Shown here: positions 3,560 to 27,388 of the stretch, piece after piece
Layout: each line of letters opens with the position of its first letter
Position numbering within the stretch: the stretch's first letter is position 1
Virus record (IMG/VR): IMGVR_UViG_3300000557_000001
DNA length: 52,548 nt
Direction: 5' to 3' (one strand)
Source of the DNA: a virus
Notes under the pieces: model-generated
What the model was told of the DNA's origin: nothing
Database searches by the model: none
What the model saw: only the letters and a program-made list of their open reading frames with translations
Position numbers and translations under genes: made by a program

Positions 3560-4033
3560 ATGCCGAAGTTAATACAGCTTGATGAAGCTTTGGAAGGTAT
3601 ATTGGACAGCGTTAACGCCACGCTGGAAGCGGCTGCAGGTGAAACAAAGCCGCTGGGCAAGGTTACTGCAATAATACGCGGCGATCGCAAACGCACGCAG
3701 CCGAAAACTCCGGCAATATGGACGCGGATCCTAAACGCGGAGCCGGATTATACAAGGCGCAGCATGGCGGAAGTATGGCGCGCGGACGTGATCCTGCTGG
3801 GCATAGTTAAAAACCAGAACCCGGATCAAGGATCCCGGGAAGCGACCCGGCTGGCAGCAAGGGCGCGCAGTGAAGTTTTAAAGGATCGGAGTTTGGGTTT
3901 ACGTGAATACGTGCAGGACGTGCGAAGTGGTATGTTTGAACCGAGTGGGCCGGAGCTACAAAGCAATGAAAACTTGTTTACGGCCACGGCGCTCCTGCAG
4001 GTTCACTTTACCATATTAGAAACAAATCCTTAA
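3560..4033 (+). CDS. Virion protein in the tail-terminator/tail-completion position; family not recognised
   Basis: 157 aa, SD AAGGAGGG; lies between the gp10-like gene and the tail tube gene. Confidence 0.45.
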   Translation: MPKLIQLDEALEGILDSVNATLEAAAGETKPLGKVTAIIRGDRKRTQPKTPAIWTRILNAEPDYTRRSMAEVWRADVILLGIVKNQNPDQGSREATRLAARARSEVLKDRSLGLREYVQDVRSGMFEPSGPELQSNENLFTATALLQVHFTILETNP

Positions 4034-4053: not shown

Positions 4054-5052
4054 ATGACTGGTAAAATTAGGCGTTATTGCGGCATAGTTGAAGAATTGGA
4101 GTTTGGCGAACAGCCGGCGCCGGATCCGGTTGTCCATCTGGACATAACAAGCGCAGGGCTGGACGTGCCTTCGGATACGAATATTATCTATGAAGGCGGC
4201 GCGCGGCGATCTGCGCGGTTATACAGGCCGGGCTTTTATGCGCCGGAAGGCGATATTGTTTACGGCTTGGACATAAGGACGATCGGCTGGTTCTTGAAGT
4301 GGGCGCTGGGCAATTACAAGTTCAATGCTCAAGGCGGATCTAAAAACCTTCACGAATTTTACGGCACGCATAACGTCAGGCTTCCCAGCTTTTGCGCGCG
4401 CGTGGGCAAGGATCTGTTTGAACATATTTTCAGCGGTTGTATTATAAACAGCTTGGAAATTAACGTTGGCGACGCTTTGTGCGTTGCAACGGCGAACGTG
4501 ATTGCCAAAAAAGACGCAAAAGGCGCGATCGAAAGCGGCGAGTTAAGCTTCCCGGAAGAATATCCGTTGGCGTTCCATGAGGTTACTGCTTACCTTAACA
4601 GCGGCGAAATTAGCGCAAAGGTTAAGGAGTTAACTTTAACGATCAATAATAACGCAACGGCTGCAGACGGGCGGCATATAGGCTCGCGCCATCCCGGACA
4701 GGTGCCGGTGGGTGATCGGGAAACGACCTTAAGCTTGGAGCTATTCTATGAAGATACGGATATGCTTGAAAAGTTTTGGGGCGGTTCTACCGGGCCAGCA
4801 AAAAGCGGCTCCGATGAATTTAGCATGAAGCTTGAATTGGACGCCGGCGATTATGGCAAGCTGGAAATTGACCTGCCGAAGCTGGTTAACGTTACAGCAG
4901 AACAGCAGCCGAGCAATCGGGATGAAATCGTGCAAAGTGTTGAAGCGCGTGCGTTTATTGATACCGTGGAGCTTGACGGCGGCGAAGAAGTGGAAACGGA
5001 AATACTTTGTTCGCTTGAAAACGAGCAGGCCGAAATGGAACCTGCAAGTTAA
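4054..5052 (+). CDS. Major tail (tube) protein candidate
   Basis: 332 aa, SD AAAGGAGGG; sits immediately upstream of the chaperone pair and tape measure; acidic C-terminal extension. Confidence 0.6.
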   Translation: MTGKIRRYCGIVEELEFGEQPAPDPVVHLDITSAGLDVPSDTNIIYEGGARRSARLYRPGFYAPEGDIVYGLDIRTIGWFLKWALGNYKFNAQGGSKNLHEFYGTHNVRLPSFCARVGKDLFEHIFSGCIINSLEINVGDALCVATANVIAKKDAKGAIESGELSFPEEYPLAFHEVTAYLNSGEISAKVKELTLTINNNATAADGRHIGSRHPGQVPVGDRETTLSLELFYEDTDMLEKFWGGSTGPAKSGSDEFSMKLELDAGDYGKLEIDLPKLVNVTAEQQPSNRDEIVQSVEARAFIDTVELDGGEEVETEILCSLENEQAEMEPAS

Positions 5053-5776: not shown

Positions 5777-7891
5777 TTGGCAACTATGGAAATTATACTG
5801 CGCGCGGTGGATCAAGCTTCCGATGTTGTGGAAGGGATCGGGCAAACAACCGAAAAGGCGGCCGGCTGGATTGATCAAAACTGGACAAAGATCGCAGCCG
5901 GGGCCGCTGCAGCCGGCGGCGCGATGGAAATGGCCGCGCGCAAACAGGCGCCGTTAACTGAACAAACGCAGCGCCTTTCTAATGCTTTGGACATGGCAGA
6001 AGATGAAGTGCGCGATCTTGCGCTGGGCATGTCTGACGTTACCTTCCCGATCGATGAAGTTTTGGGCTTAATGGAAAAAGGCCGGCAGCAGGGCATTGAA
6101 AGCGCGGAAGCGTTGGAAGAATATGCGTTGTTTTGGGATCAGGTTGGCGATGCGACCGGCTTAAGTGCTGAACGGTTGGCCGAAAGTTCGTCTGCACTGC
6201 GCGCGGTTGGCATTGCCGCCGGTGAAGAAGCGCAAGCGCTGGACGCCTTTGGTTATATAACGCAGGAAACAAGCGGCAGCGTGGATGATTTTATGCACTT
6301 TATTGATCGCACGGGGCCAGAACTGCGCGAAATGGGTGCAGATGTGGACGATGCTGCAGCCGTGCTGGGTGCTTTAGAGCATGAACTTGGTATGAGTGGC
6401 CGCACGGCGCGAACAGAGTTTAGGCAGGCGATCAATGAAGCGAATGGCGATATGGGCAAGGCGCTTGAAACGCTGGGCTTAAGCGAAGAACAGTTTAAGG
6501 AATACCGGGGCGCCGTTGCAGATAGCAGCGATGTTATAGAAAAAAATGCGGAAGCGCACGAAGAAAGTTATACCACGATGCAACGTTTGCAGGCGCGCGC
6601 GGAGGATCTTATGTATCAATACGGCGATTTGATCGGCGTTGTGGGTGATTTTGCGCCGCTTATGATGGGATTAGGGCCAATATTAAAAGGCGTTACCACG
6701 GCCAAAAAGGCGCTGGGTGCAGTGTCTATGAAGGCAATGGTGCCGGCTATTGTAGGCGCAACGAAGGCAGCTTGGGGCTTTACGGCTGCACTGCTGGCGA
6801 ACCCGATAACGTGGATCGTGCTGCTGATAGTTGGCTTAATAGCGGCGATCGTGGCTTTATGGAAAAACTGGGATACAGTTAGCGAAAACTTGGTTAAGGC
6901 TTGGGATTGGATCCGGGAACGTGCGACCGCTATATGGGAAGGAATTAAAAACTTTTTTAAACAGGTCTGGCAGGTGATAAGCGGCATATTTGAAGCCGCG
7001 CTGCAATTTATAATCGACCTGTTTATGAAATATCATCCGCTGGGGCTTATTATAAGCAACTGGGAAGAAATATTAGACTTTTTCCGGGATATATGGAGCC
7101 GGATCATTGGAACCACGGATACCAGCTTGGATGATATTGTAAACTTTTTTGCTGAATTGCCGGGCCGGATTTGGGAATGGCTGGTCAACTTGGTTGCGCG
7201 GATCTTTAACTGGGATAACGATATGCGACAAGCGGCCATTGATGCCGGCCATAACTTTATTGAAAACTATATTAATTTTATACGGCAGCTTCCGGGCCGC
7301 GTTTGGACTTGGCTGGTTAACGTTATTAACCGGTTTATTAACTGGCGGAACACAGTGGTCAGCAGGGCGGCCGAAGCTGGGCGCAGTTTATTAAGAGGAT
7401 TTATGGACGTTGTGCGCAACTTACCGGGGCAGCTTTGGGATACGCTGCAACGAGCCGTCCGCAACTTAATGAACATAGGCGGTGCGCTTTGGAACGCTGC
7501 AAGGAACGCAGGGCAGCGGATCTGGAACGGGATCAGCAGCGCGCTGGGCATAAGCTCGCCTTCCCACGTGGAACGGGCGATCGATGCAATGGCGGATCGG
7601 GCTGCTGAATTGCCGGGTGAAATGCAACGGCATTTCGGCCAGATTGAAGGGCTGCAGCCGGAGCTTGACGCTAATGTTAACACGGCAACTTCCGGCCTGC
7701 GCGAAGGCGGCGTTACGCGCAGCGAGTTAACTATAAAGCACGACCTTGAAAACGTGCCGGATCACATAGACGAAAACAAGCTTGCGAATATGTTAGCGCA
7801 GACCTTAAAGCGGCCAGAAATGCGCCGTGAGCTTGATAAGGCCGGGCATAAAACAAAGCAGCGCTTTAAGGCTCAAGGGAGGGAAATCTAA
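5777..7891 (+). CDS. Tail tape measure protein
   Basis: 704 aa; central hydrophobic helices; long run of W/F-periodic helical repeats (IWEWLVNLVARIFNW.., VWTWLVNVINRFINW..); position before Dit. Confidence 0.85.
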   Translation: MATMEIILRAVDQASDVVEGIGQTTEKAAGWIDQNWTKIAAGAAAAGGAMEMAARKQAPLTEQTQRLSNALDMAEDEVRDLALGMSDVTFPIDEVLGLMEKGRQQGIESAEALEEYALFWDQVGDATGLSAERLAESSSALRAVGIAAGEEAQALDAFGYITQETSGSVDDFMHFIDRTGPELREMGADVDDAAAVLGALEHELGMSGRTARTEFRQAINEANGDMGKALETLGLSEEQFKEYRGAVADSSDVIEKNAEAHEESYTTMQRLQARAEDLMYQYGDLIGVVGDFAPLMMGLGPILKGVTTAKKALGAVSMKAMVPAIVGATKAAWGFTAALLANPITWIVLLIVGLIAAIVALWKNWDTVSENLVKAWDWIRERATAIWEGIKNFFKQVWQVISGIFEAALQFIIDLFMKYHPLGLIISNWEEILDFFRDIWSRIIGTTDTSLDDIVNFFAELPGRIWEWLVNLVARIFNWDNDMRQAAIDAGHNFIENYINFIRQLPGRVWTWLVNVINRFINWRNTVVSRAAEAGRSLLRGFMDVVRNLPGQLWDTLQRAVRNLMNIGGALWNAARNAGQRIWNGISSALGISSPSHVERAIDAMADRAAELPGEMQRHFGQIEGLQPELDANVNTATSGLREGGVTRSELTIKHDLENVPDHIDENKLANMLAQTLKRPEMRRELDKAGHKTKQRFKAQGREI

Positions 7892-18976: not shown

Positions 18977-18991
18977 AGGGAGGGCTTGTTT

Positions 18992-19540
18992 ATGCAAGCG
19001 ATTTATCTTGCAGGTGCAATCAGTGAAGTTTCGCCTGAATACGCGGTTGGATGGCGCAGGGCGGCAGGGAGTTATTTAGAAAGGGCAGGCTTTAAGGTGT
19101 TTGACCCGACAAGCGGAAAGGATTTAACGCTGCCGGGCATTAACACGGATTATTATACTCCGGAGGGCATTGTAGAAGCAGACCTTGACGCTATATGGCA
19201 AAGTGATATAATACTTGCGGAAATAGCTTTAAAGGGCGTTGCTTACCACGGAACCAGCATGGAGCTTGCGTATGCTTACAACTGGAACAAGCTGGTTTTC
19301 GTTTGGGGCGGCGCGACCTCTTACTGGGTGCGATACCATGCCACGGAAATTTTCGATGAATTGACGGAAGCACTGGAAAGGATTGCAGCATTAAAGGTGC
19401 TTTGTGCGCCGGTTAACACAAAGGAGGAATTAAAGTTTGGACAACGAAACACGCAGAAAAAAGGTTTGGGATCTTTACTTACAGGGAGAAAGCTACAATG
19501 CGATCGGTTCAGAACTGGGCTTGAGCTTCCATCAAGTTAA
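18992..19540 (+). CDS. Nucleoside 2-deoxyribosyltransferase-like / dNMP N-glycosidase-like protein
   Basis: IYLAGAIS at the N-terminus and HGTSMELAYAYNWNKLVFVW (catalytic Glu context); the 3' ~100 nt overlap the next gene. Confidence 0.65.
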   Translation: MQAIYLAGAISEVSPEYAVGWRRAAGSYLERAGFKVFDPTSGKDLTLPGINTDYYTPEGIVEADLDAIWQSDIILAEIALKGVAYHGTSMELAYAYNWNKLVFVWGGATSYWVRYHATEIFDELTEALERIAALKVLCAPVNTKEELKFGQRNTQKKGLGSLLTGRKLQCDRFRTGLELPSS

Positions 19541-20597
19541 AGGGATCATTGGCAGGGCAAAGGAGCAGGCCAAAAAACACGGGCAAGCGTTCCGGCCAAA
19601 AAGAACCGTTGAACAGGAGCAGCAGGAAGAACCGTTTACCATGCAAGAACTTAACGAGCAGCTTTATAGCTTTTTAGCAAAGCCACGGGCTGCGGAGGAC
19701 ATAAAGCAGCGTTTCGGGATCAGCGACCGCGTGCTGGAAGCCGCCGTTGCGGATCTGCAGGAAGAAGGAAAGCTGGTTGAATATAATGACGGCGTTTACA
19801 GGCTGCAGAAGGATCTTGCGCCGGTAGATATACCGGTGCATGACGCAGGCTGGCAGGGCGACCGGATTATACGGTTCGGCGTTGCAAGCGATAAGCACTT
19901 TAACAGCAAATTTGCACAGATTACGAACATGAACCGGCTTTATGATGTATTTGAACAGGAAGGGATCGAAAACGTTTATGATCCGGGCGATCTGGATGAA
20001 GGCGAAAAAATGCGCAAGGGCCACGAATACGAATGCTATAATCAAGGCGCGGATGATCACGTTGAAGAAGTGGTTAAAAACCACCCACGGCGCACAGTTA
20101 ACGGCCGGCCGATGAAAACTTACTTTATAACAGGGAACCATGACTTGAGCTTTGTTAAGCGCAGCGGCTTGGATATTGGCAGCATGATCGCAAACAAGCG
20201 CGATGACATGGTTTATTTAGGGCAAAGCTGGGCGCTGATTAACTTGACCCCGACCTGCACTATGGAACTTCGCCATCCGGCCGATGCCACGGCATACGCG
20301 ATCAGCTACAAAACGCAGAAGATGATCGATGCCATGTTCGGCGGCGAAAAGCCGAATATATTGGTTGTGGGTCATTATCACAAAGCAGAATATTTATTTT
20401 ACCGCAACGTTCACGCTATACAGGCCGGCTGCCTGCAGGGCCAGACGCCTTTTATGCGGAACAAAGGGCTGGCGGCCATGATGGGCGGATGGATTGTAGA
20501 AATCCGCGTGGATGATGAAGGCGGCGTTGATCGCATAAAGCTTGAGTTTGTTCCGTTTTACTATACGCAGAAGGACGATTATTTAAACTTTAGGTAA
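19437..20597 (+). CDS. HTH domain fused to a calcineurin-like metallophosphoesterase
   Basis: 386 aa, TTG start 9 nt after AAGGAGG; HTH YLQGESYNAIGSELGLSFHQVKGII; SDKHFNS, DPGDLDEG, ITGNHD, VVGHYHK. Confidence 0.7.
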   Translation: MDNETRRKKVWDLYLQGESYNAIGSELGLSFHQVKGIIGRAKEQAKKHGQAFRPKRTVEQEQQEEPFTMQELNEQLYSFLAKPRAAEDIKQRFGISDRVLEAAVADLQEEGKLVEYNDGVYRLQKDLAPVDIPVHDAGWQGDRIIRFGVASDKHFNSKFAQITNMNRLYDVFEQEGIENVYDPGDLDEGEKMRKGHEYECYNQGADDHVEEVVKNHPRRTVNGRPMKTYFITGNHDLSFVKRSGLDIGSMIANKRDDMVYLGQSWALINLTPTCTMELRHPADATAYAISYKTQKMIDAMFGGEKPNILVVGHYHKAEYLFYRNVHAIQAGCLQGQTPFMRNKGLAAMMGGWIVEIRVDDEGGVDRIKLEFVPFYYTQKDDYLNFR

Positions 20598-20614
20598 AAG
20601 GAGGTGAAAAAGCA

Positions 20615-20935
20615 ATGGCTGAATTTTTTGATTTTGTTTTAAGTTACTGGGGATTGATTGGTTTAGCGTTGATCTTTGTGCTAAAGGCGATCTTTGACTG
20701 GGAAGCTACAAAAAAGCGGATTCGGGATTTGATCTTTTTAGCTGAAGAATTAGCGCAAAAGAAGATCCTTGAAACTGGGAAGGAAAAGTTTGAATGGGTG
20801 AAAAATAACGGATACGCTTACCTTCCGAAGTGGCTTAAACTGGTTATTAGCGAAGAACTGTTTGAAAAAATAGTGCAAAACATTTTCGATCGGATCAAAG
20901 AGTGGGCAAAAGGCGAAGATTTGATCGAAGAATAA
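20615..20935 (+). CDS. Holin candidate (LL-H-family-like: one N-terminal TM helix plus helical tail)
   Basis: 106 aa; SYWGLIGLALIFVLKAIF TM; layout resembles LL-H holins as I remember them; last gene before the strong terminator. Confidence 0.45.
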   Translation: MAEFFDFVLSYWGLIGLALIFVLKAIFDWEATKKRIRDLIFLAEELAQKKILETGKEKFEWVKNNGYAYLPKWLKLVISEELFEKIVQNIFDRIKEWAKGEDLIEE

Positions 20936-20966
20936 GGCTCCCTTCCCTTTAGGGTTCCCTTATATG

Positions 20967-20997
20967 CCGCCGTGCTGCAAGGCGCGGCGGTTTTTTT
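20967..20997 (+). terminator. Rho-independent terminator ending the late transcription unit
   Basis: 9-bp stem CCGCCGTGC/GCGCGGCGG (one G:U), 6-nt loop, followed by T7. Confidence 0.85.
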
Positions 20998-21039
20998 ATG
21001 TTTTTCTTGGACTTTACAGGCCGCCGGGCAACGTTTACA

Positions 21040-21102
21040 ATAAAAAAAGCAGAAAAAATCAAAAAAAATCATAAAAAAAATAAAAAAAAATCCAGTTTTT
21101 TT
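21040..21102. other. Phased A-tracts (A7, A6, A8, A8, A9) followed by T7; intrinsically bent DNA / UP-element-like region
   Basis: CAATAAAAAAAGCAGAAAAAATCAAAAAAAATCATAAAAAAAATAAAAAAAAATCCAGTTTTTTT between the late terminator and the early promoter. Confidence 0.6.
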
Positions 21103-21200
21103 GCTTGCAAGAATAAGAAATGCCTTAACCACGGGCTTTTCGGGGAACAAGAAGATGTCCGGGGAAGTTAAAAAAAACACGAAAAAAGTGGGTGAAACCC

Positions 21201-21229
21201 TTTACAAGGTGCAAAGGGCATGTTATTAT
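21201..21229 (+). promoter_or_regulatory. Sigma70-type early promoter candidate
   Basis: TTTACA - 17 nt - TATTAT. Confidence 0.55.
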
Positions 21230-21236
21230 ATAATTA

Positions 21237-21564
21237 GAGCAAGGGCAAAACAGAAAGACAAGCAAGACCGAACCTTGAAAACAGAATAGCCGCCGCAAGC
21301 CGGGAAGACCCTAAGAGCCGGCCACAGCCAAAAGGCTGACGGGAGCAGGAACCGCGAAAGACCGGTAGGGCAAACAGAAGGGCGGAGGCAAAACTGGCAG
21401 AAAGAAGCCACGGGTGGCGCCGATAAGGAGCTGGGGAGCCGAGAGGTTTTAAAAGGAAAACACGGCGCAAGAGCCGCAAGCAAGAGCAGGCGAAAATGGC
21501 GTTGGACAGGTAAACGACACCCCGAACGGAGCAGCCGGGTTGCAACGGTTGTTAAACATAGTGA
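21237..21564 (+). ncRNA. T-depleted purine-rich untranslated leader / candidate non-coding RNA
   Basis: No + strand ORF >=60 aa; 19 T in 21241-21540 (hand count); bounded by the promoter at 21201 and hammerhead A. Confidence 0.3.
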
Positions 21565-21640
21565 GCCGAAAACGGGCGGCAGTTAAGCTGCCGCCGTTAC
21601 ATTGCCGATTAGCCGCGGCAGTGCTGATGATGGCAGGCTA
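21565..21640 (+). ncRNA. Type II hammerhead ribozyme candidate A (predicted cleavage after 21599)
   Basis: GCC-GAA-[AACGGGCGGCAG..CTGCCGCCGTT]-A-[CATTGCCG..CGGCAGTG]-CTGATGA-t-GGC; stem I loop TAGCC can pair with GGCTA at 21636-21640. Confidence 0.75.
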
Positions 21641-21667
21641 AACAAAACTTTTAAAGGGGTGCTGAAA

Positions 21668-22513
21668 ATGAAAAAGATCGTTAACAGCTTTAATGAAGAA
21701 AGAACTTTTGGAGTAGAGATTGAGTTTGTGCATAACAACGCGGAGCAGGTTGCAGCTAAAGTGAGGGAATACGGGTTGGATTGCAGGGTTGAACATTATA
21801 ACCACGAAGATCGAACATGGTGGAAGATTGTTACCGACGCAAGCGTGCAGGCGCGGAACGGCCAGATTGGCCGCGGACTTGAAATTGTTAGCCCGATTTT
21901 AAAAGGCCGCGAAGGGCTTGCAGAAATTGAAACTGTTTGCGCCGCGCTGGAACAAGCTGGCGCCGACGTTAACGTTACAGCCGGCTTGCACGTGCATCAC
22001 GACGCAAGCGATTTTAACGTAAACAGCTTTAAAAACATAACCTTACTTTATACCCGTTACGAAAAAACAATAGACAGTTTAATGCCGCGCAGCCGCCGGG
22101 CAAACGGGAACCAATATTGCAAGAGCTTGTTTGATGCCCGGATGGGCAGCTTTAGCAGCGACGAAGCGTTTATGAATTGGATTTACAATGCCAGCAGCAC
22201 TGACCAACTGTTAAACTTTTTTACAGACCGGTTTTTAAAGCTTAACTTAAGGGCTTACCGGGCGCACAGCACGGTTGAATTTAGGCAGCACAGCGGAACG
22301 GTTGAAGCGCCGAAAATTATAAACTGGATTAAGTTAACGCAAGCAATGGTTAACAAGGCGACTGACCGCAACGTTTTGAACCCCAAAAACGTTGACGATA
22401 GCTGGAAAAGCTTTAAGAAAGCCGTTGCACTGACCGGATACCGCGGCGCTGACGAAGAACTGCAGCAAGTGCAGAAATTTTACGGCAAGCGCCAGAAGCA
22501 GTTAGCAAGCTAA
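21668..22513 (+). CDS. Amidoligase (glutamine synthetase-fold, Amidoligase_2-type)
   Basis: ATG 21668 behind AAAGGGGTG; RTFGVEIEF, GLEIVSPIL, AGLHVHHD. Confidence 0.75.
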   Translation: MKKIVNSFNEERTFGVEIEFVHNNAEQVAAKVREYGLDCRVEHYNHEDRTWWKIVTDASVQARNGQIGRGLEIVSPILKGREGLAEIETVCAALEQAGADVNVTAGLHVHHDASDFNVNSFKNITLLYTRYEKTIDSLMPRSRRANGNQYCKSLFDARMGSFSSDEAFMNWIYNASSTDQLLNFFTDRFLKLNLRAYRAHSTVEFRQHSGTVEAPKIINWIKLTQAMVNKATDRNVLNPKNVDDSWKSFKKAVALTGYRGADEELQQVQKFYGKRQKQLAS

Positions 22514-22516
22514 CAA

Positions 22517-22584
22517 GGCGAAAGCAGCGCGCACGACCGGCGCTGCTCTGCAGCGGTGGCGCCGCTGCACTGATGAGCCAGCCA
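22517..22584 (+). ncRNA. Type II hammerhead ribozyme candidate B (predicted cleavage after 22548)
   Basis: GGC-GAA-[AGCAGCGC..GCGCTGCT]-C-[TGCAGCGG..CCGCTGCA]-CTGATGA-GCC; stem I loop TGGC can pair with GCCA at 22581-22584. Confidence 0.8.
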
Positions 22585-22613
22585 GATAAAAAAAGGGGAA
22601 GGGAGTTGTTAAC

Positions 22614-23099
22614 ATGGAACGGACGGGCGTTAAGTTGGAGGGCATTGAACGGCAGTGGGAATTTATGTTAGCAGGGAACGCGCTGCTTACCATTGAAAAC
22701 GAACAGACCGGCAGCCGTTACACTTACCGGATTAAAGGCCGCAAGACTGGCAACGGCAAGATCCTTTACTTTGTTAACGTTTTAAGCGGCAGCAATAATG
22801 AAACGGATTATAGATACGTTGGAACCATATTTTTTGAAAAGGGCGCTGCAGAGGGTGAGTTTAGGCTTACCAGTAAAAGCAGGGTGAGCGCACAGTGCAA
22901 GAGCTTTAAGGCGTTTTACTGGTTGTTTAATATGCTGCAGCAAGGAAACGCGCTGCCGGAACATATTAACTTTTACCATGCCGGATCTTGCGGCAAGTGC
23001 GGCCGGACTTTAACAGTGCCGGAAAGCATTGAAACCGGACTGGGGCCGCATTGCCGGCAGAACATTGGAACAAGCGGATTGCGGACACTGGCAAGCTAA
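22614..23099 (+). CDS. Hypothetical protein with C-terminal CxxC..GxGPxC zinc-ribbon-like motif
   Basis: 161 aa; SD GGGAAGGGAG; SCGKCGRTLTVPESIETGLGPHCR. Confidence 0.6.
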   Translation: MERTGVKLEGIERQWEFMLAGNALLTIENEQTGSRYTYRIKGRKTGNGKILYFVNVLSGSNNETDYRYVGTIFFEKGAAEGEFRLTSKSRVSAQCKSFKAFYWLFNMLQQGNALPEHINFYHAGSCGKCGRTLTVPESIETGLGPHCRQNIGTSGLRTLAS

Positions 23100-23116
23100 A
23101 AAAGGAGGGATTGTTA

Positions 23117-23371
23117 ATGATTTACATTTTATTGGAAACAGGAAAATGGTATAAGGGCGAAACTTGTTTGGACTTGGTTAAAGCACTGCGCGACGCGACT
23201 TGGATGGTTGAAAACAATATACGTTATATGGAAGGCGTTGCGCAGCGCTGCCGGATCTGGAACGGTGATGTGCTGCAGTTTAACAATGAAGATGAATTTG
23301 TTGCAGAACTGCTGCGCGCTGGCGTTATTAAAGAAATGGTTGTTAAGGAGGAAGATACGGTTAATGGATAG
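23117..23371 (+). CDS. Hypothetical protein
   Basis: 84 aa from ATG 23117, 7 nt after AAAGGAGGG. Confidence 0.55.
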   Translation: MIYILLETGKWYKGETCLDLVKALRDATWMVENNIRYMEGVAQRCRIWNGDVLQFNNEDEFVAELLRAGVIKEMVVKEEDTVNG

Positions 23372-23481
23372 GGCGCAGCGGTTGACAGGCGGCCGCTGCC
23401 GCCTTATAAGTGCAGCCGGGGCCGGTTGCATTTATAAGGCGCTTAAAACGCCTTAAAATCAATTTTAAAGGGGTGCTGACA

Positions 23482-23808
23482 ATGACTGAAAGGGAATTGC
23501 AAGTATTGGAGATCAGGGAACGGATTGCAAGGGAAAAGCTGGTTGAAAGTATTAAAGACGCAGTTGATACGATTAATAGGTTTGCCGGTGAAGGCAGCCG
23601 TTACGTTGAACGCTTGGAAGAACAGGACGATCGCGTTGCAATATGGGAGCGCGCAAGCTGGTTTATTAACCACGTAAATAATATGAGCTTTAATATACCG
23701 CTTGACCGGATCGCGCGCGATGCTGCAGAACTGGCAAAAATACAGGGCATGAAGCAGCAGCTTGATAACGAAATAAACCGTAAAAGTGAAGAAGAAGGGC
23801 TTATTTAA
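23482..23808 (+). CDS. Hypothetical coiled-coil protein
   Basis: 108 aa from ATG 23482; its upstream TTTTAAAGGGGTGCTGAcAATG nearly repeats the sequence before 21668. Confidence 0.6.
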   Translation: MTERELQVLEIRERIAREKLVESIKDAVDTINRFAGEGSRYVERLEEQDDRVAIWERASWFINHVNNMSFNIPLDRIARDAAELAKIQGMKQQLDNEINRKSEEEGLI

Positions 23809-23834
23809 CCTAAAATTTTAAGGAGGGCTTTATA

Positions 23835-24212
23835 ATGGCAAGGGCATTGACTGGCGTTAAGGCGCTGCAAAACGAAATTGAACGGAAGGGCAGTTTGGTT
23901 ATAAGCGACGGAACCATGCGGAACAGCGATTTGCTGGAAGCAATGGTTGATTTAGTGCAGGCTTACGATCTGCGGCCAGAATGGCGCAAGGAAGCGGAAC
24001 GGCTGGTTTACGGCGATAATGAAGTGCCGGCGCCGCCGGAAGAAGCGCTTAATGACTGGGATGGTGAATGTTTTGATCAGGCGATAATATTGATCCACGA
24101 AGAAGCGTGGCCTTACTTGGACGAGATTGCCGCCGGCATTGATGCCGACTTTGGGTGCCATCCCGGCGACGGCGCGCTGGTTGGCTTCTTTTATGAAGGA
24201 GTTTTAAAATAG
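23835..24212 (+). CDS. Hypothetical acidic protein
   Basis: 125 aa; SD AAGGAGGG. Confidence 0.6.
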   Translation: MARALTGVKALQNEIERKGSLVISDGTMRNSDLLEAMVDLVQAYDLRPEWRKEAERLVYGDNEVPAPPEEALNDWDGECFDQAIILIHEEAWPYLDEIAAGIDADFGCHPGDGALVGFFYEGVLK

Positions 24213-24289
24213 CCGAAAGGCCGCGGTTATGGCTGACGCCGCGGCCTCTGCAGCAGGTTTGCCACTGCTGCACTGATGAAGGCAGGCTG
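24212..24289 (+). ncRNA. Type II hammerhead ribozyme candidate C (predicted cleavage after 24248)
   Basis: GCC-GAA-[AGGCCGCGG..CCGCGGCCT]-C-[TGCAGCAG..CTGCTGCA]-CTGATGA-a-GGC; stem I loop TGCC can pair with GGCA at 24281-24284. Confidence 0.75.
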
Positions 24290-24316
24290 CAAAACAAAAA
24301 AAGGGAGTTGATTGCC

Positions 24317-24631
24317 ATGCGTTTTGAAGAAATTTTAGCGGACAAGGTTTTAATGAACCCTAACAGGTTAATCAGGCAGCAGGTTAAATATTGCCTGCCG
24401 AACGGCGCTGTTTTGGCCGTGCTTGATAAGCCAGAAGCGCAAGAGCTTGTTTTAAGCAAAAAGGCAAGCGTTGCAGGGGATGACAAGATCGTTGAGTTAG
24501 TTTGCCCGGATTGCGAAAATATGGGCATGGTATTTAAGGATGACGGAACGGAAGAATATTGCAGTTTATGCCGCTGGGGTGCAGAGCTTAAGGCGGAAGC
24601 TGCTGAATATGGAGGTGGCTGCAATGCGTAA
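24317..24631 (+). CDS. Hypothetical zinc-ribbon protein
   Basis: ATG 24317, 10 nt after GGGAG; CPDC...CSLC. Confidence 0.55.
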   Translation: MRFEEILADKVLMNPNRLIRQQVKYCLPNGAVLAVLDKPEAQELVLSKKASVAGDDKIVELVCPDCENMGMVFKDDGTEEYCSLCRWGAELKAEAAEYGGGCNA

Positions 24632-24821
24632 AACGAAAACAAAAGGCGCGCTTAACTGCGCCGATTGCGGCGTGGAAATGATCGGGGAAGCGGCAGCGCT
24701 GCTGCACGATCTGCAGCGCGAGCCGATCTTTACGGTTTACAATGCAAAGGGAACGATCTGGCGCTTGATCTGCAAGCGCTGCTTTTGGGAACTTACTAAC
24801 AAAACAGAAGGAGGATCTTAA
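24624..24821 (+). CDS. Hypothetical zinc-ribbon protein
   Basis: 65 aa from ATG 24624, 5 nt after GGAGGTGG; CADC...CKRC. Confidence 0.5.
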   Translation: MRKTKTKGALNCADCGVEMIGEAAALLHDLQREPIFTVYNAKGTIWRLICKRCFWELTNKTEGGS

Positions 24822-24822
24822 A

Positions 24823-25083
24823 ATGAGTGAAGTTTACGGTGCAGTTGTAGGAAACCGCGGCAAGGCAACGCGGCAGGGATCAAAAGAAAGCGGCATAAGG
24901 GCCGCCGCGCAAAGCTGGGAAGGCAGCGTTATAACGGAACTTTACCAGTGGCAAGGCGAAAAATGCGTGCGGATCACGATTAACGAAGGCAGCACAGATG
25001 AACATTATAGCGGAAATACGCTGTTTAATGGCACGTTGGCCGAACTGAAAGAGTTGGCCGCCGAAAAGGAACGGGAGGGTTAA
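24823..25083 (+). CDS. Hypothetical protein
   Basis: 86 aa; SD GAAGGAGGA. Confidence 0.6.
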   Translation: MSEVYGAVVGNRGKATRQGSKESGIRAAAQSWEGSVITELYQWQGEKCVRITINEGSTDEHYSGNTLFNGTLAELKELAAEKEREG

Positions 25084-25088
25084 GCGTT

Positions 25089-25334
25089 ATGACAGAGTTT
25101 ATTGCAGGGATGGATCAAGTTTTGCTGACGCGGTTGGCTGCACTGGCAGCCGCCGCGTTGGCCGGAGCATTGCTTGTTAAGTTTGTTGACAGTATAATGG
25201 GATCGGTATATGCGCGCAGGCGCGCAAGGCTGCGCCTTGTTGCAGCGTTACGGGCGCGCGGCATTATGCGACCCCGGCTGCAGCAGAATTATAAAAGACA
25301 TAAACGCCAAAAAGAAGGGTTTTGGCGGTTGTAA
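25089..25334 (+). CDS. Hypothetical membrane-associated protein with basic tail
   Basis: 81 aa; LAALAAAALAGALLV hydrophobic segment. Confidence 0.5.
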   Translation: MTEFIAGMDQVLLTRLAALAAAALAGALLVKFVDSIMGSVYARRRARLRLVAALRARGIMRPRLQQNYKRHKRQKEGFWRL

Positions 25335-25355
25335 AAGACAAAGGAGTTGGGTGGT

Positions 25356-25463
25356 ATGAACGAAGCAGCTTTTGATTTTTTTGTTAACTTTTGGTTGTTT
25401 GGCTTTATGTTATGGGTGCAAGGTGTTTGCATATATATTTTAAAAGTAAGAAGGGGTGAATAA
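25356..25463 (+). CDS. 35-aa hydrophobic micro-protein candidate (not in ORF track)
   Basis: ATG 9 nt after AAAGGAG; MNEAAFDFFVNFWLFGFMLWVQGVCIYILKVRRGE. Confidence 0.35.
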   Translation: MNEAAFDFFVNFWLFGFMLWVQGVCIYILKVRRGE

Positions 25464-25464
25464 C

Positions 25465-25953
25465 ATGGGCAAAAAAATGATATATTTCGCTTATGGCAGC
25501 AACTTAAACTTAAGGCAGATGAAGCAGCGCTGCCCGGACGCACGGCCGATCGGAGTGGCAAAGCTGCCCGGACACAGGCTGGTTTTCCGCGGCGTTGCTG
25601 ACGTGATACCTAACAGGCAGGGCGGATCGGTTATGGGTGTTATATGGGAAATAACGCCGCGCTGCTTAAAGGAGCTTGATCGTTATGAAGGTTATCCGCA
25701 TTTATACGGCCGGCGATACTGCACGGTGATCGGCGAAGATGACGGCATATTGCGCGAAGCGATCGTTTACTATATGAAGAAGGGCGATCTTGCGCCGCCG
25801 AGCCGCGGATACTGGAAGGTGATCATGGAAGGATATAATGACTTTTGCATGGTGCCACGGCGCGATCTGCTGGAACCGAATTATGGTTACGGGAACGCGC
25901 GGCTGGACTATGATTGCGAAAAGTATTATCAGAGCGTTTTGCATTGGTATTAA
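25465..25953 (+). CDS. Gamma-glutamylcyclotransferase-like (AIG2/GGCT fold) protein
   Basis: ATG 25465, 7 nt after GAAGGGGTG; FAYGSNLNLRQMKQRCP, LDRYEGYPHLY. Confidence 0.75.
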   Translation: MGKKMIYFAYGSNLNLRQMKQRCPDARPIGVAKLPGHRLVFRGVADVIPNRQGGSVMGVIWEITPRCLKELDRYEGYPHLYGRRYCTVIGEDDGILREAIVYYMKKGDLAPPSRGYWKVIMEGYNDFCMVPRRDLLEPNYGYGNARLDYDCEKYYQSVLHWY

Positions 25954-26043
25954 AGGGCTTTACAGGCAGCGCAAGCGGCCGCCGTTTGTGCTGCTAATAA
26001 AGCCGCTTTAAGTGGCTTTTAATAACTTTTGGGAGGTGGTTAT

Positions 26044-26301
26044 ATGGATAAACGGCCGGAAGTGCCGCTGCCGGATATGCTGGATACGCTTAAGGCGTTA
26101 AGGCTTTACCGGAAGCGATCACTGCGGCAGGCTGCAGAAGTGCTGGGCTTGAGCAGCAGTGGTTTGAGTTTGATCGAAAGTGGAGATCGGAGTTTATCGC
26201 TGCAACGTGCAGCGGACATGGCGGCGCTCTATGAAGTGGATCTGGATACCATATATAAGCTTTACAGGGCGACACGCAAACAAAAAAAGGAGGATGATTA
26301 A
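26044..26301 (+). CDS. XRE-family helix-turn-helix transcriptional regulator
   Basis: RSLRQAAEVLGLSSSGLSLIESGDRSLSL; ATG 26044 after GGGAGGTGG. Confidence 0.7.
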   Translation: MDKRPEVPLPDMLDTLKALRLYRKRSLRQAAEVLGLSSSGLSLIESGDRSLSLQRAADMAALYEVDLDTIYKLYRATRKQKKEDD

Positions 26302-26302
26302 A

Positions 26303-27388
26303 GTGGGTAAAAAGACATTGTTGCAAGTGGCGAATGAAGTGGAGCATGATCAGCGCGGAAAGATCGACTATGTTTTGCCGTTTAGGAACCTTTACATGGA
26401 TGATAACGGTGGATTTGCTTTTAAGCGCGTTAACGAAGTTCAGATACCTTATGCGCACGAAAGCACGGCGCGACAGGCAGATGTTAGGCTTGAGCCGAAC
26501 GACTGGGCCACGAGCCAGCTTTTAGGGCGGCTTAATATGCCGGCTGAATACTTTAAGCGCCTGTTAACACAAAGGGAAGCGGCGCCGTGGCTGTTTGCGA
26601 GCCATTTCAATTACTGGGCAAGCCGGACGAATAAGCATATAAGGTTAAGGGCAAAACTCTATAACGGCAACGGAACGGGCGTTGTGCGCGGCGCAGTTAG
26701 CGACAAATATAGCATATTGGATAATGATACCGTGATCAGCACTTTAGCCGGCATAATGCAAGGCAGGGAAGATGACTTTGAAATAGTTGACTTCCATTTA
26801 GACGATCGCAGGATGAACCTGCGCGTGGCTTATAACGATTTAGCCGTGCAGCTTGGGAACCTGCCGGGCGGCGAAGCTGACTGGAACAAGCTGGGCAGCG
26901 ACTTTGTGAATAGCGAAGTGGGTGCAAGTGCTTTTAACCTGCAGGCGTTGATCTGGCGCTTGATCTGCAGCAACGGCTTGCGTGGCTGGGATCAGCAGGG
27001 CGAAGCATTTACACAGCGGCATATTCACTTAAGGCCGATCGAGTTTCAAGGCCGGATTGCTGATGCTATAGTTAACAGCTTGCAGACCGGGCAGGACTTT
27101 TTGAACGCCTTTAAAAACACGCAGGAAAAGCAGATTAATGACCCGTTTGCTGTTATTAAAAAACTGGCAAACGATGGCAACTTTAGCCGGCAGTTTACGG
27201 ATCAGGCCGTTTCAGAGTGGGAAGGCCACGATACCGCTTATGGCGTTGTGAACGCCTTTACACGTGCAGCGCGCACGTTACCGAACGAGCGCCGGCTGGA
27301 AGCGGAAAGCTATGCTGGGCGGCTGACACGTTTGCCGGCCGAACAGTGGGATAAAATAAGCGAAGAAGCAATATTGGAAACAGCTTAA
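26303..27388 (+). CDS. DUF932/DUF945-like phage/plasmid protein
   Basis: GTG 26303, 9 nt after AAGGAGG; GAVSDKYSILDN.., LIWRLICSNGL. Confidence 0.7.
   Translation: MGKKTLLQVANEVEHDQRGKIDYVLPFRNLYMDDNGGFAFKRVNEVQIPYAHESTARQADVRLEPNDWATSQLLGRLNMPAEYFKRLLTQREAAPWLFASHFNYWASRTNKHIRLRAKLYNGNGTGVVRGAVSDKYSILDNDTVISTLAGIMQGREDDFEIVDFHLDDRRMNLRVAYNDLAVQLGNLPGGEADWNKLGSDFVNSEVGASAFNLQALIWRLICSNGLRGWDQQGEAFTQRHIHLRPIEFQGRIADAIVNSLQTGQDFLNAFKNTQEKQINDPFAVIKKLANDGNFSRQFTDQAVSEWEGHDTAYGVVNAFTRAARTLPNERRLEAESYAGRLTRLPAEQWDKISEEAILETA

Follow-up and report, generated by a model that had tools for sequence, protein, structure and literature searches.

Three intergenic sites on the + strand of the window, by which we mean the whole 52,548-nt stretch of phage DNA analysed, are genuine type II hammerheads, as judged from their sequence, from covariance models and from covariation in relatives. 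These sites, copies A, B and C (Table 1), are very probably active and would cut one long + strand transcript that begins near 21237. Among the products encoded in the window are domains of terminase, portal, tail tube, primase and helicase, and the three copies bracket first one gene, between A and B, and then four genes, between B and C.

Reading the sequence directly, we found all conserved hammerhead core nucleotides, arranged in the type II layout, in each copy. The core strand C3 U4 G5 A6 N7 G8 A9 is present in all three, GAA-A lies at 21568-71, 22520-23 and 24215-18, and the partner U of the A15.1:U16.1 pair is found at 21598, 22547 and 24247. H17 is a nucleotide other than G in every copy, and stem I, whose first base is at 21600, 22549 or 24249, reaches up to the base next to C3. 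The type II permutation, with stems I and III looped and stem II open, was matched by both the descriptor and the model alignments. The original prediction had placed three sites with this shared layout and a complete invariant core here, and our parse agrees with it in its coordinates and in every core nucleotide of each copy; the positions it gave for cleavage (after 21599, 22548 and 24248) are likewise the correct ones for H17 by the motif parse, cleavage itself being predicted. All three copies have the G10.1:C11.1 pair, and one nucleotide intervenes between A9 and G10.1 in A (U21631) and C (A24280). An extra nucleotide at this point is common in the phage family, with T in 17 of the 28 seed sequences, a frequency that is biased because the pattern used to gather the seed itself permitted 0 or 1 nucleotide after A9.

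Table 1. Positions of the three hammerheads, their parts and neighboring features in the window.
Feature	Position	Strand	Remarks
Terminator-like hairpin and T-run	20966..20991	+	11-bp stem, 8 GC pairs, then TTTTTTT
Promoter-like site	21201..21229	+	TTTACA, 17-nt spacer, TATTAT, upstream TG; 10/12 consensus matches
Purine-rich leader	21238..21564	+	about 325 nt; no ORF
Hammerhead A	21565-21641	+	intergenic; type II
A, stem II	GCC 21565-67 / GGC 21632-34	+	
A, GAA	21568-70	+	
A, stem III	21571-21598	+	A15.1:U16.1 closing pair, 5 bp, bulged G, 6 bp
A, H17 / cleavage site	after A21599	+	predicted
A, stem I	21600-07 / 21616-23	+	8 bp
A, pseudoknot	TTAGCC 21609-14 / GGCTAA 21636-41	+	6 bp
A, core CTGATGA (CUGAUGA)	21624-30	+	then extra T (U) 21631
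Amidoligase gene	21668..22513	+	281 aa; PF12224 E 8e-47; phrog_2443 E 4.5e-48
Hammerhead B	22517-22584	+	intergenic; type II
B, stem II	GGC 22517-19 / GCC 22577-79	+	
B, GAA	22520-22	+	
B, stem III	22523-47	+	
B, H17 / cleavage site	after C22548	+	predicted
B, stem I	22549-56 / 22562-69	+	
B, pseudoknot	TGGC 22557-60 / GCCA 22581-84	+	4 bp
B, core CTGATGA	22570-76	+	without extra nucleotide before GCC
DUF6011 protein gene	22614-23099	+	PF19474, E 1.3e-11
84 aa gene	23117-23371	+	ORF list
108 aa gene	23482-23808	+	ORF list
125 aa gene	23835-24212	+	ORF list
Hammerhead C	24212-24293 (24212-24287 without shifted pseudoknot)	+	intergenic; type II
C, stem II	GCC 24212-14 / GGC 24281-83	+	
C, GAA	24215-17	+	
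C, stem III	24218-47	+	
C, H17 / cleavage site	after C24248	+	predicted
C, stem I	24249-56 / 24265-72	+	
C, pseudoknot, family register	GCC 24261-63 / GGC 24285-87	+	3 bp, weak
C, pseudoknot, alternative	TTTGC 24258-62 / GCAAA 24289-93	+	5 bp, shifted by 4 nt
C, core CTGATGA	24273-79	+	then extra A 24280
104 aa gene	24317..24631	+	first downstream of cut C; ORF list

The Rfam Hammerhead_II model (RF02276, gathering threshold 37 bits) matches all three copies. This search had been proposed with the original prediction, and it bore out B at 42.4 bits, above gathering, while C (30.1 bits, E 0.002 locally) and A (20.7 bits, E 0.62) fell below. An independent covariance model, R1, whose seed comprised 28 further type II hammerheads of phages, scored C at 51.3 bits (E 5.8e-11), A at 45.6 (E 1.5e-9) and B at 41.2, with E values for the three of 6e-11 to 2e-8, and its next-best match in the window reached only 13.7 bits. 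A strict type II descriptor found 3 sites in the window versus 0 in 300 dinucleotide-preserving shuffles. CTGATGA occurs five times in the whole window; three of these are hammerheads A, B and C, and the remaining pair fall inside genes and have no hammerhead context.

Covariation supports stems I, II and III as well as the pseudoknot between loop I and the 3′ tail. In alignment A3 (17 sequences, window copies included), 94.5% of cells are paired and 18 of 22 pairs show double-sided changes; none of 500 shuffles scored as high, and slid registers were only 30-44% paired. The pseudoknot helix has double changes in four of its five pairs, and values for alignment A2 are similar. GAAA, CUGAUGA, A15.1:U16.1 and a non-G H17 are invariant over dozens of relatives in which the stems vary freely, which fits a catalytic core rather than a generic hairpin. 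Family covariation also settles the register, with stem II formed by the first GGC, followed by one A and then the pseudoknot. The loop I/tail pseudoknots originally proposed stand for A, where the pairing extends to 6 bp, and for B, whereas the one proposed for C (TGCC/GGCA, 24281-84) shares nucleotides with stem II and lies outside the family register. A pairing of at least 4 bp in that register is present in A and B, and C has 3 bp there. This pseudoknot is needed for fast cleavage, and shortening or shifting it lowers the rate by 20-fold to >100-fold (Perreault et al. 2011, PMC3088659).

The predicted folds differ among the copies. For B, the hammerhead is the minimum-energy fold. For A, the hammerhead fold without its pseudoknot comes to -33.5 kcal/mol versus -36.5 for an alternative minimum-energy fold, and in prefix folding stems III and I form first. 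The minimum-energy fold of C reproduces the predicted stems I and III, though it takes the second GGCU for stem II, a register that family covariation does not support.

The arrangement recurs in related phages. In L003, whose amidoligase is 77% identical, hammerheads lie before and directly after the amidoligase gene, with a third further on. The ortholog of copy A in L003 (3898-3963) has compensated stems and a compensated pseudoknot, the latter through a change from G:C to A:U, which argues for selection on the fold. In L006, with a 44% identical amidoligase, one hammerhead abuts the amidoligase stop codon and a second lies 1.5 kb downstream. The hammerheads right after the amidoligase gene in L003 and L006 show compensated stem changes, and the copy B position is occupied by a hammerhead also in L211, L212, L215, L218 and L293, so that a hammerhead directly following the amidoligase gene recurs in at least eight lineages. 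In the window phage, L003 and L006 alike, the amidoligase gene is the first after a long non-coding stretch. In a set of 52 type II hammerheads from phages, stem II follows the preceding stop codon by a median of 0.5 nt (10 nt or less in 44 of 50), and the median distance from the core to the next start codon is 34 nt, with exactly 37 nt for A, B and C. In our window, copy B begins 3 nt past the amidoligase stop codon (TAA 22511-13), and the stop codon TAG at 24210-12 overlaps stem II of copy C. A stop codon abutting stem II is near-universal in the family and may couple ribozyme folding to termination of upstream translation.

The surrounding features are compatible with one transcript through all three sites. 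A terminator-like hairpin putatively ends the preceding tail/structural gene block; it is the sole + strand terminator-like site that we found within 20500-26500, and no T-runs were found after the ribozyme hairpins. Downstream of it, a promoter-like site is the putative start, near 21237, of the transcript carrying A, B and C, and both of its hexamers are conserved in L003. Copies A and B flank the amidoligase gene (21668-22513; PF12224, E 8e-47), as had been proposed. The 84 aa, 108 aa and 125 aa genes between B and C gave no family match in profile searches. By eye, a second promoter-like sequence (TTGACA, 17 nt, TATAAG) is seen between B and C at ~23384-23412. The spacer 23372-23481 of the same operon contains stable hairpins without the hammerhead core.

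We propose that each site would fold while RNA polymerase moves through it, first into the stem III hairpin and next into the stem I hairpin. The CUGAUGA strand would then emerge, and after it the second strand of stem II (3 nt) and the tail complementary to loop I, whereupon the core would close and the RNA would cut itself 3′ of H17, after 21599, 22548 and 24248. The predicted products are a leader RNA of ~362 nt (to 21599) that includes stem III of A, a 949-nt monocistronic amidoligase mRNA (21600-22548), a 1700-nt four-gene mRNA (22549-24248) and the remainder downstream of 24248. Given the type II layout, upstream products would have the stem III hairpin at their 3′ end, followed by a single nucleotide with a 2′,3′-cyclic phosphate, and downstream products would start with a 5′-OH immediately at the stem I hairpin and pseudoknot, ~20-25 nt before the next ribosome-binding site. 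Every segment would thus gain its own context-independent 5′ and 3′ ends, which could uncouple its stability and translation from its neighbors and from the long leader. The papers that we consulted contain no demonstration of such a stability or insulation benefit downstream for a natural phage hammerhead.

In the leader that cleavage at A would detach, + strand ORFs of at least 40 aa are absent. Its identity to that of L003 is 85.8%, versus 76-81% for the flanking coding sequences, and the two leaders differ by indels of 1, 4 and 6 nt. GNRA-type loop sequences are abundant in it. A consensus fold of the two sequences has 66 pairs, 0 broken and 4 compensated, a count that gives the fold weak support, since these two sequences were also the source of the structure. 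Hammerhead A might mature the 3′ end of a structured RNA of ~360 nt (21238-21599) that acts independently early in infection, although we regard this as rather doubtful; antitermination and protein-sponging are examples of roles that such a released leader may have.

Another reading accepts the three copies as true hammerheads by descent but holds that at least one, likeliest C and then A, is a slow or inactive relic, in which case B alone, or B together with A, would cut the transcript. This reading draws on the scores of A and C below Rfam gathering, the nucleotide inserted after A9 in both, the 3-bp in-register pseudoknot of C and the competing fold of A, which is favored by ~3 kcal/mol over the hammerhead fold without its pseudoknot. 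Some clustered hammerheads may indeed not function, and pseudoknot defects cut the rate by orders of magnitude (PMC3088659). However, the core is intact in A, B and C, the phage-family model ranks C and A above B, covarying members of the family often have the insertion after A9, and the L003 ortholog of A keeps its fold via compensatory changes, one of them in the pseudoknot. Relic status for one or more copies is unlikely, and we favor three active ribozymes.

It is very improbable that the paired ribozymes instead excise and ligate, so that the amidoligase segment would be circularised or spliced out in the manner of viroids or retrozymes. Cuts at A and B would put a 5′-OH and a 2′,3′-cyclic phosphate on one 949-nt fragment, the chemistry required for hammerhead or RtcB ligation, and this possibility was raised for clustered prophage hammerheads; spliced or circular products were sought in that study, but none were found (Perreault et al. 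2011, PMC3088659). The chimera at a circular junction would also need the 5′ stem II strand of B (GGC 22517-19) to pair with the 3′ strand of A (GGC 21632-34), strands that are not complementary, and the fragment carries an ordinary gene that has a ribosome-binding site and a stop codon of its own. We give hardly any credence to the sites being non-catalytic structured RNA or DNA elements with an incidental core (stabilising hairpins, protein-binding sites, attenuators or recombination sites), for although each has two stable GC-rich hairpins and the 23372-23481 spacer has such hairpins without the core, the core is fixed across dozens of relatives while the stems vary, no T-runs follow the hairpins, and the descriptor never matches shuffled sequence.

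With three active hammerheads as the preferred reading, this phage from soda-lake sediment metagenomes offers a natural, well-supported example of operon segmentation by ribozymes, in which cleavage is predicted. Three by-products of the analysis could make the unsettled role of bacterial and phage hammerheads testable. First, in this phage family the ribozyme takes up the spacer, starting a median of 0.5 nt after the preceding stop codon and reaching to ~34 nt before the next start, and through the type II layout both cleavage products would be hairpin-capped. Second, the position directly after the amidoligase gene is recurrent, and third, one ribozyme would free a conserved non-coding leader. 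These leave the class unchanged, and for now the locus adds an entry to the catalogue and offers a convenient model for experiments.

The early polycistronic mRNA of phage T7 is cut by RNase III in its intergenic spacers, yielding discrete mRNAs with hairpin 3′ ends. There, a host protein enzyme acts on double-stranded sites, whereas here self-cutting is predicted to be independent of the host and to leave 5′-OH and cyclic-phosphate ends. RiboJ, a synthetic ribozyme insulator engineered from a satellite RNA hammerhead, is placed before the ribosome-binding site and strips variable upstream RNA, making expression independent of the 5′ context. Its likeness to the phage hammerheads is one of function only, since RiboJ is engineered and the phage elements are natural. 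For the extra nucleotide of copies A and C there is a parallel in the CChMVd (+) hammerhead, which De la Pena and Flores (J Biol Chem 276:34586, cited in PMC3705267) reportedly described in 2001 as natural and functional with one extra core residue, said to lie between A9 and G10.1. The single extra core residue is alike, but the CChMVd element is a viroid ribozyme of different topology.

The closest relatives of the three copies are the type II hammerheads themselves (RF02276; PMC3088659), with which they share the core, the capped stems I and III, the open 3-bp stem II, the loop I/tail pseudoknot (weak in C) and an intergenic location in phage or prophage DNA. Copy B alone fits the Rfam consensus form (GCC-A-GCCA), whereas A and C belong to a sub-family, AGCC...(U/A)GGC-A-GGCNN, to which the Rfam model gives low scores (20.7 and 30.1 bits). 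Earlier work had published and tested type II hammerheads, their pseudoknot and their clusters, two or three to a cluster, beside prophage genes; in prophages, multiple hammerheads flank one gene or a short block of genes, and three clustered ('tandem') arrangements cleaved when tested in vitro (Perreault et al. 2011, PMC3088659). The Agrobacterium tumefaciens triple around ardA, cloned in E. coli, cleaved also in vivo, and processing into gene- or operon-length mRNAs was proposed as the role of clustered hammerheads (PMC3088659). Like that triple, the copies described here are several hammerheads bracketing a gene or short block on a polycistronic transcript, here probably a single one; unlike it, they flank an amidoligase gene, a conserved leader of ~325 nt precedes the first ribozyme, and cleavage is predicted. 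A three-hammerhead operon, which the original prediction singled out for testing, had thus already been reported from prophages (Perreault et al. 2011, PMC3088659), and the locus is a further example of a class known since 2011, not a new class. The published survey described the flanked genes as 'not constant' (Perreault et al. 2011), whereas here the position after the amidoligase gene is held by a hammerhead in at least eight lineages.

The sequence of 21400-24500 bears out the three-site layout of the original prediction, with all three motifs intergenic and on the + strand. In each, a 3-nt strand and GAA lead into a hairpin with an A:U closing pair (stem III), which is followed by an unpaired A or C at H17 (the nucleotide 5′ of the cut), an 8-bp hairpin (stem I), the core strand CTGATGA and the 3-nt complement that completes the open stem II. 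Copies A and C carry one extra nucleotide between CTGATGA and the second 3-nt strand. Direct reading likewise places the scissile positions where they had been proposed, after A21599, C22548 and C24248. CTGATGA occurs five times in the 52.5-kb window, and the two sites other than copies A, B and C fall within coding sequence and are without hammerhead context. We also applied a strict type II descriptor, which asked for GAA, for a stem III with an A..U closing pair and 5 bp or more, for any nucleotide but G at H17, for a stem I of 5 bp or more that runs directly into CTGANGA, and for a stem II of three base pairs with at most one inserted nucleotide; it matched the window three times, as compared with no match in 300 dinucleotide-preserving shuffles.

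The Rfam Hammerhead_II model (RF02276) matched all three copies. Copy B exceeded the gathering score (42.4 against 37 bits), with copy C (30.1 bits, E 0.002, local scan) and copy A (20.7 bits, E 0.62, local scan) below it. The low scores of A and C arise because their sub-family is poorly represented in the Rfam seed. By Rfam E-value scan, there were no further ribozymes in the window. To gather the sub-family of A and C, we searched IMG/VR with the pattern CTGATGA-N(0,1)-GGCAGGC, and about half of the loci returned held complete type II hammerheads. An alignment of 28 hammerheads from these loci, none of them from the window, was used to build a covariance model, R1. With filters off, R1 scored 51.3 bits for C, 45.6 for A and 41.2 for B (E 6e-11 to 2e-8), and nothing else in the whole window rose above 13.7 bits, indicating that the window has exactly three copies. 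We are nearly certain that all three motifs are true type II hammerheads.

In the 28-sequence seed, 94.5% of cells were paired; shuffled sequences gave 73% and slid registers 32-46%. A 17-sequence model-guided alignment took in the three window copies, three from contig L003, two from contig L006 and the second copies of other loci, which lie outside selection by the search pattern. Both-sided changes were present in 18 of its 22 pairs, and none of 500 shuffles reached the observed values. Within the seed, the search pattern biases stem II as well as pairs one to three of the pseudoknot; unbiased changes there came from the independent second copies and from the L003 and L006 copies (GCU/AGC, GUC/GAC, GGC/GCC). 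In the covarying pseudoknot helix, loop I pairs with the 5 nt that lie 3′ of stem II plus one A, and one pair of this helix is GC in 15 seed sequences, CG in 6, UA in 2 and AU in 1. This covariation resolves the register, which had been ambiguous by eye: on the sequence evidence, the first GGC, or GCC in copy B, belongs to stem II, and a single A separates it from the pseudoknot. The alternative, in which the second GGCU pairs with AGCC as stem II, is the minimum-energy fold of copy C but goes against the family covariation, because loop I, and not the A upstream of stem II, is the covariation partner of the nucleotide that follows the second GGC; this A is nearly invariant in the family alignments. 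The co-varying loop I/tail pseudoknot proposed for all copies was recovered in A (6 bp) and B (4 bp), whereas in C the family register allows just 3 bp, and a 5-bp alternative is shifted by 4 nt. The idea that the alternating polarity of stem II (GCC/GGC, GGC/GCC, GCC/GGC) is a designed block against chimeric ribozymes is unsupported, since the first two L003 copies are both GCC/GGC.

The gene between copies A and B encodes an amidoligase (PF12224, E 8e-47). A blastn search with 20900-25000 gave no match among phage GenBank records, and single-protein searches found no close relatives in IMG/VR. A 98% identical amidoligase is present on contigs L001 and L002, together with the same three ribozymes, and a 77% identical one on the soda-lake contigs L003, L004 and L206. 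The closest relatives of the window (L206, L207 and L293 listed) are from soda-lake sediment metagenomes (SL_8KL_010_SED, Ga0207421), and the nearest match in genome collections, 2.5 kb long, is a contig that was binned to a Spirochaetaceae MAG from the same type of sample. The L003 ribozymes differ from those of the window in stem sequence, yet the changes are compensated; in the pseudoknot of the ortholog of copy A, for example, G:C is replaced by A:U. The gene that precedes the third L003 ribozyme is homologous to the 84-aa gene of the window, where a hairpin-rich spacer without a ribozyme occupies the corresponding position; ribozymes therefore change position with the exchange of gene cassettes. 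The spacer itself is intergenic and folds very stably (-57.8 kcal/mol, z -5.2), with a near-perfect hairpin of ~19 bp at roughly 23400-23441. It overlaps a TTGACA-17-TATAAG promoter-like sequence, and 3′ of the spacer is the same ribosome-binding block (TTTTAAAGGGGTGCTGA) that the amidoligase gene has. An RNase III-type processing site is one possible role for this spacer, an internal promoter or operator another.

Positions of the hammerheads and neighboring features in the window and in related loci
Sequence	Feature	Position (nt)	Remarks
Window	Nucleoside 2-deoxyribosyltransferase-like gene	18986-19540	upstream of amidoligase operon
Window	Terminator-like site	20966-20991	only one on the nearby + strand
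Window	Promoter-like site	21201-21229
Window	Leader	21238-21564	purine-rich, ORF-free
Window	Copy A	21565-21641	+ strand
Window	Amidoligase gene	21668-22513
Window	Copy B	22517-22584	+ strand
Window	Spacer	23372-23481	position of third hammerhead in L003
Window	Copy C	24212-24293	+ strand
Window	GGACT/AIG2-like gamma-glutamyl cyclotransferase gene	25456-25953	downstream of amidoligase operon
Window	tRNA-like minihelix	48467-48546
L003	Hammerhead 1	3898-3963	before amidoligase gene; ortholog of copy A
L003	Hammerhead 2	4837-4899	directly 3′ of amidoligase gene
L003	Hammerhead 3	5965-6018	3′ of 77-aa gene
L006	Hammerhead	4322-4395	abuts amidoligase stop codon; amidoligase 44% identical
L211	Hammerhead	2228-2299	directly after amidoligase stop codon
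L212	Hammerhead	1253-1321	directly after amidoligase stop codon
L215	Hammerhead	1266-1337	directly after amidoligase stop codon
L218	Hammerhead	1293-1364	directly after amidoligase stop codon
L293	Hammerhead	1628-1691	directly after amidoligase stop codon

The amidoligases of the last six loci in the table are 42-53% identical to that of the window, and these loci usually have a second hammerhead 0.7-1.8 kb beyond the first (1.5 kb downstream in L006). Among 80 IMG/VR amidoligase loci, type II hammerheads were found only in L006/L007, and 20 of the IMG/VR loci were without Rfam ribozymes of any class. Across metagenome and genome amidoligase loci the ribozyme is present in a minority only. A general amidoligase-ribozyme link was rejected, as most amidoligase loci are without a ribozyme, and the link is therefore lineage-restricted: the association is recurrent inside a clade, not general.

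All large ORFs lie on the + strand. In gene content the window resembles the complete genome of a tailed phage: it has genes for terminase, portal and tail, and its replication block includes an SNF2 helicase, a primase/DUF927 protein and a methylase. The terminator-like and promoter-like sites lie 5′ of the ribozyme region and the replication genes downstream of it, an arrangement that would fit an early operon, short of proof. Most likely, co-transcriptional self-cleavage at A, B and C would split one transcript into a ~362-nt leader, the amidoligase mRNA (949 nt), an mRNA of four genes (1700 nt) and the remainder, and we consider it highly probable that the three hammerheads cleave and segment this transcript as predicted. 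Copy B is the safest candidate for fast cleavage. Copy A, with its extra U, bulged stem III and competing fold, and copy C, with its extra A and weak pseudoknot, may be slower. In prefix folding of copy A, stems III and I form before the competing full-length fold becomes available. A viroid hammerhead with an extra core nucleotide, reportedly described by De la Pena and Flores in 2001, is a precedent for the insertion. Owing to the type II permutation, the stem III hairpin would close off the 3′ end of the upstream product, and the 5′ end of the downstream product would carry the hairpin of stem I together with the pseudoknot; we infer that these terminal hairpins shield the RNA ends from exonucleases and 5′-end-dependent decay.

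For gene geometry we used 52 distinct phage type II hammerheads, from the window and from loci L003-L204. The upstream ORF ends in a stop codon that directly adjoins the 5′ strand of stem II or overlaps it (median gap 0.5 nt; 10 nt or less in 44 of 50), which probably explains the conserved A or TAA/TGA/TAG that the family consensus shows immediately 5′ of stem II. The distance from the core to the next start codon has a median of 34 nt and is 37 nt at each of copies A, B and C. A DUF6011 gene lies directly 3′ of hammerhead B. This gene, the deoxyribosyltransferase-like gene (a weak Pfam match, recorded for relatives) and the cyclotransferase gene may form a peptide- or nucleotide-modification module with the amidoligase operon.

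The leader is 85.8% identical to that of L003, as compared with 76-81% for the flanking coding sequences; its indels of 1, 4 and 6 nt are non-coding, and motifs resembling GCAA/GAAA loops are numerous in it. Of the 66 pairs in the consensus fold of the two sequences, none is broken and 4 are compensated. The leader had no match in Rfam, and homologues beyond the window and L003 lineages were found neither by exact 25-mer in IMG/VR, nor by nhmmer over 372 loci, nor among relatives traced through the neighboring 386-aa protein. At 21271-80, CCUUGAAAAC may resemble a Firmicute rrn boxA; a literature search gave no confirmation of this likeness. A possible anti-Shine-Dalgarno pairing in the leader (CACCCC with GGGGUG) shows no covariation in L003 and was discarded for that reason. 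The identity, the indels and the compensated pairs would speak for a conserved, structured RNA with its own function, matured by copy A from the transcript. This evidence is weak, because it comes from two lineages and the fold was derived from those same lineages; we regard the reading as unlikely.

Elsewhere in the window, the tRNA-like minihelix combines a T-arm (GGGUUCAACUCCC) with an acceptor stem of 7 bp that includes a G3:U70 pair. It scored 50.1 bits with the Rfam tmRNA model (gathering 47), a match to the tRNA-like ends only, with 14 nt replacing 308, and ARAGORN called nothing there. The minihelix is preceded by a promoter-like sequence of the TTGACA type and followed by a T-run.

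Natural type II hammerheads were described by Perreault et al. 2011 (PMC3088659), together with the loop I/tail pseudoknot needed for fast cleavage and an association of hammerheads with prophages. The authors sought spliced or circular products and found none. In the same work, three clustered ('tandem') arrangements cleaved in vitro, and the A. tumefaciens triple, around ardA, cleaved also in E. coli (PMC3088659).
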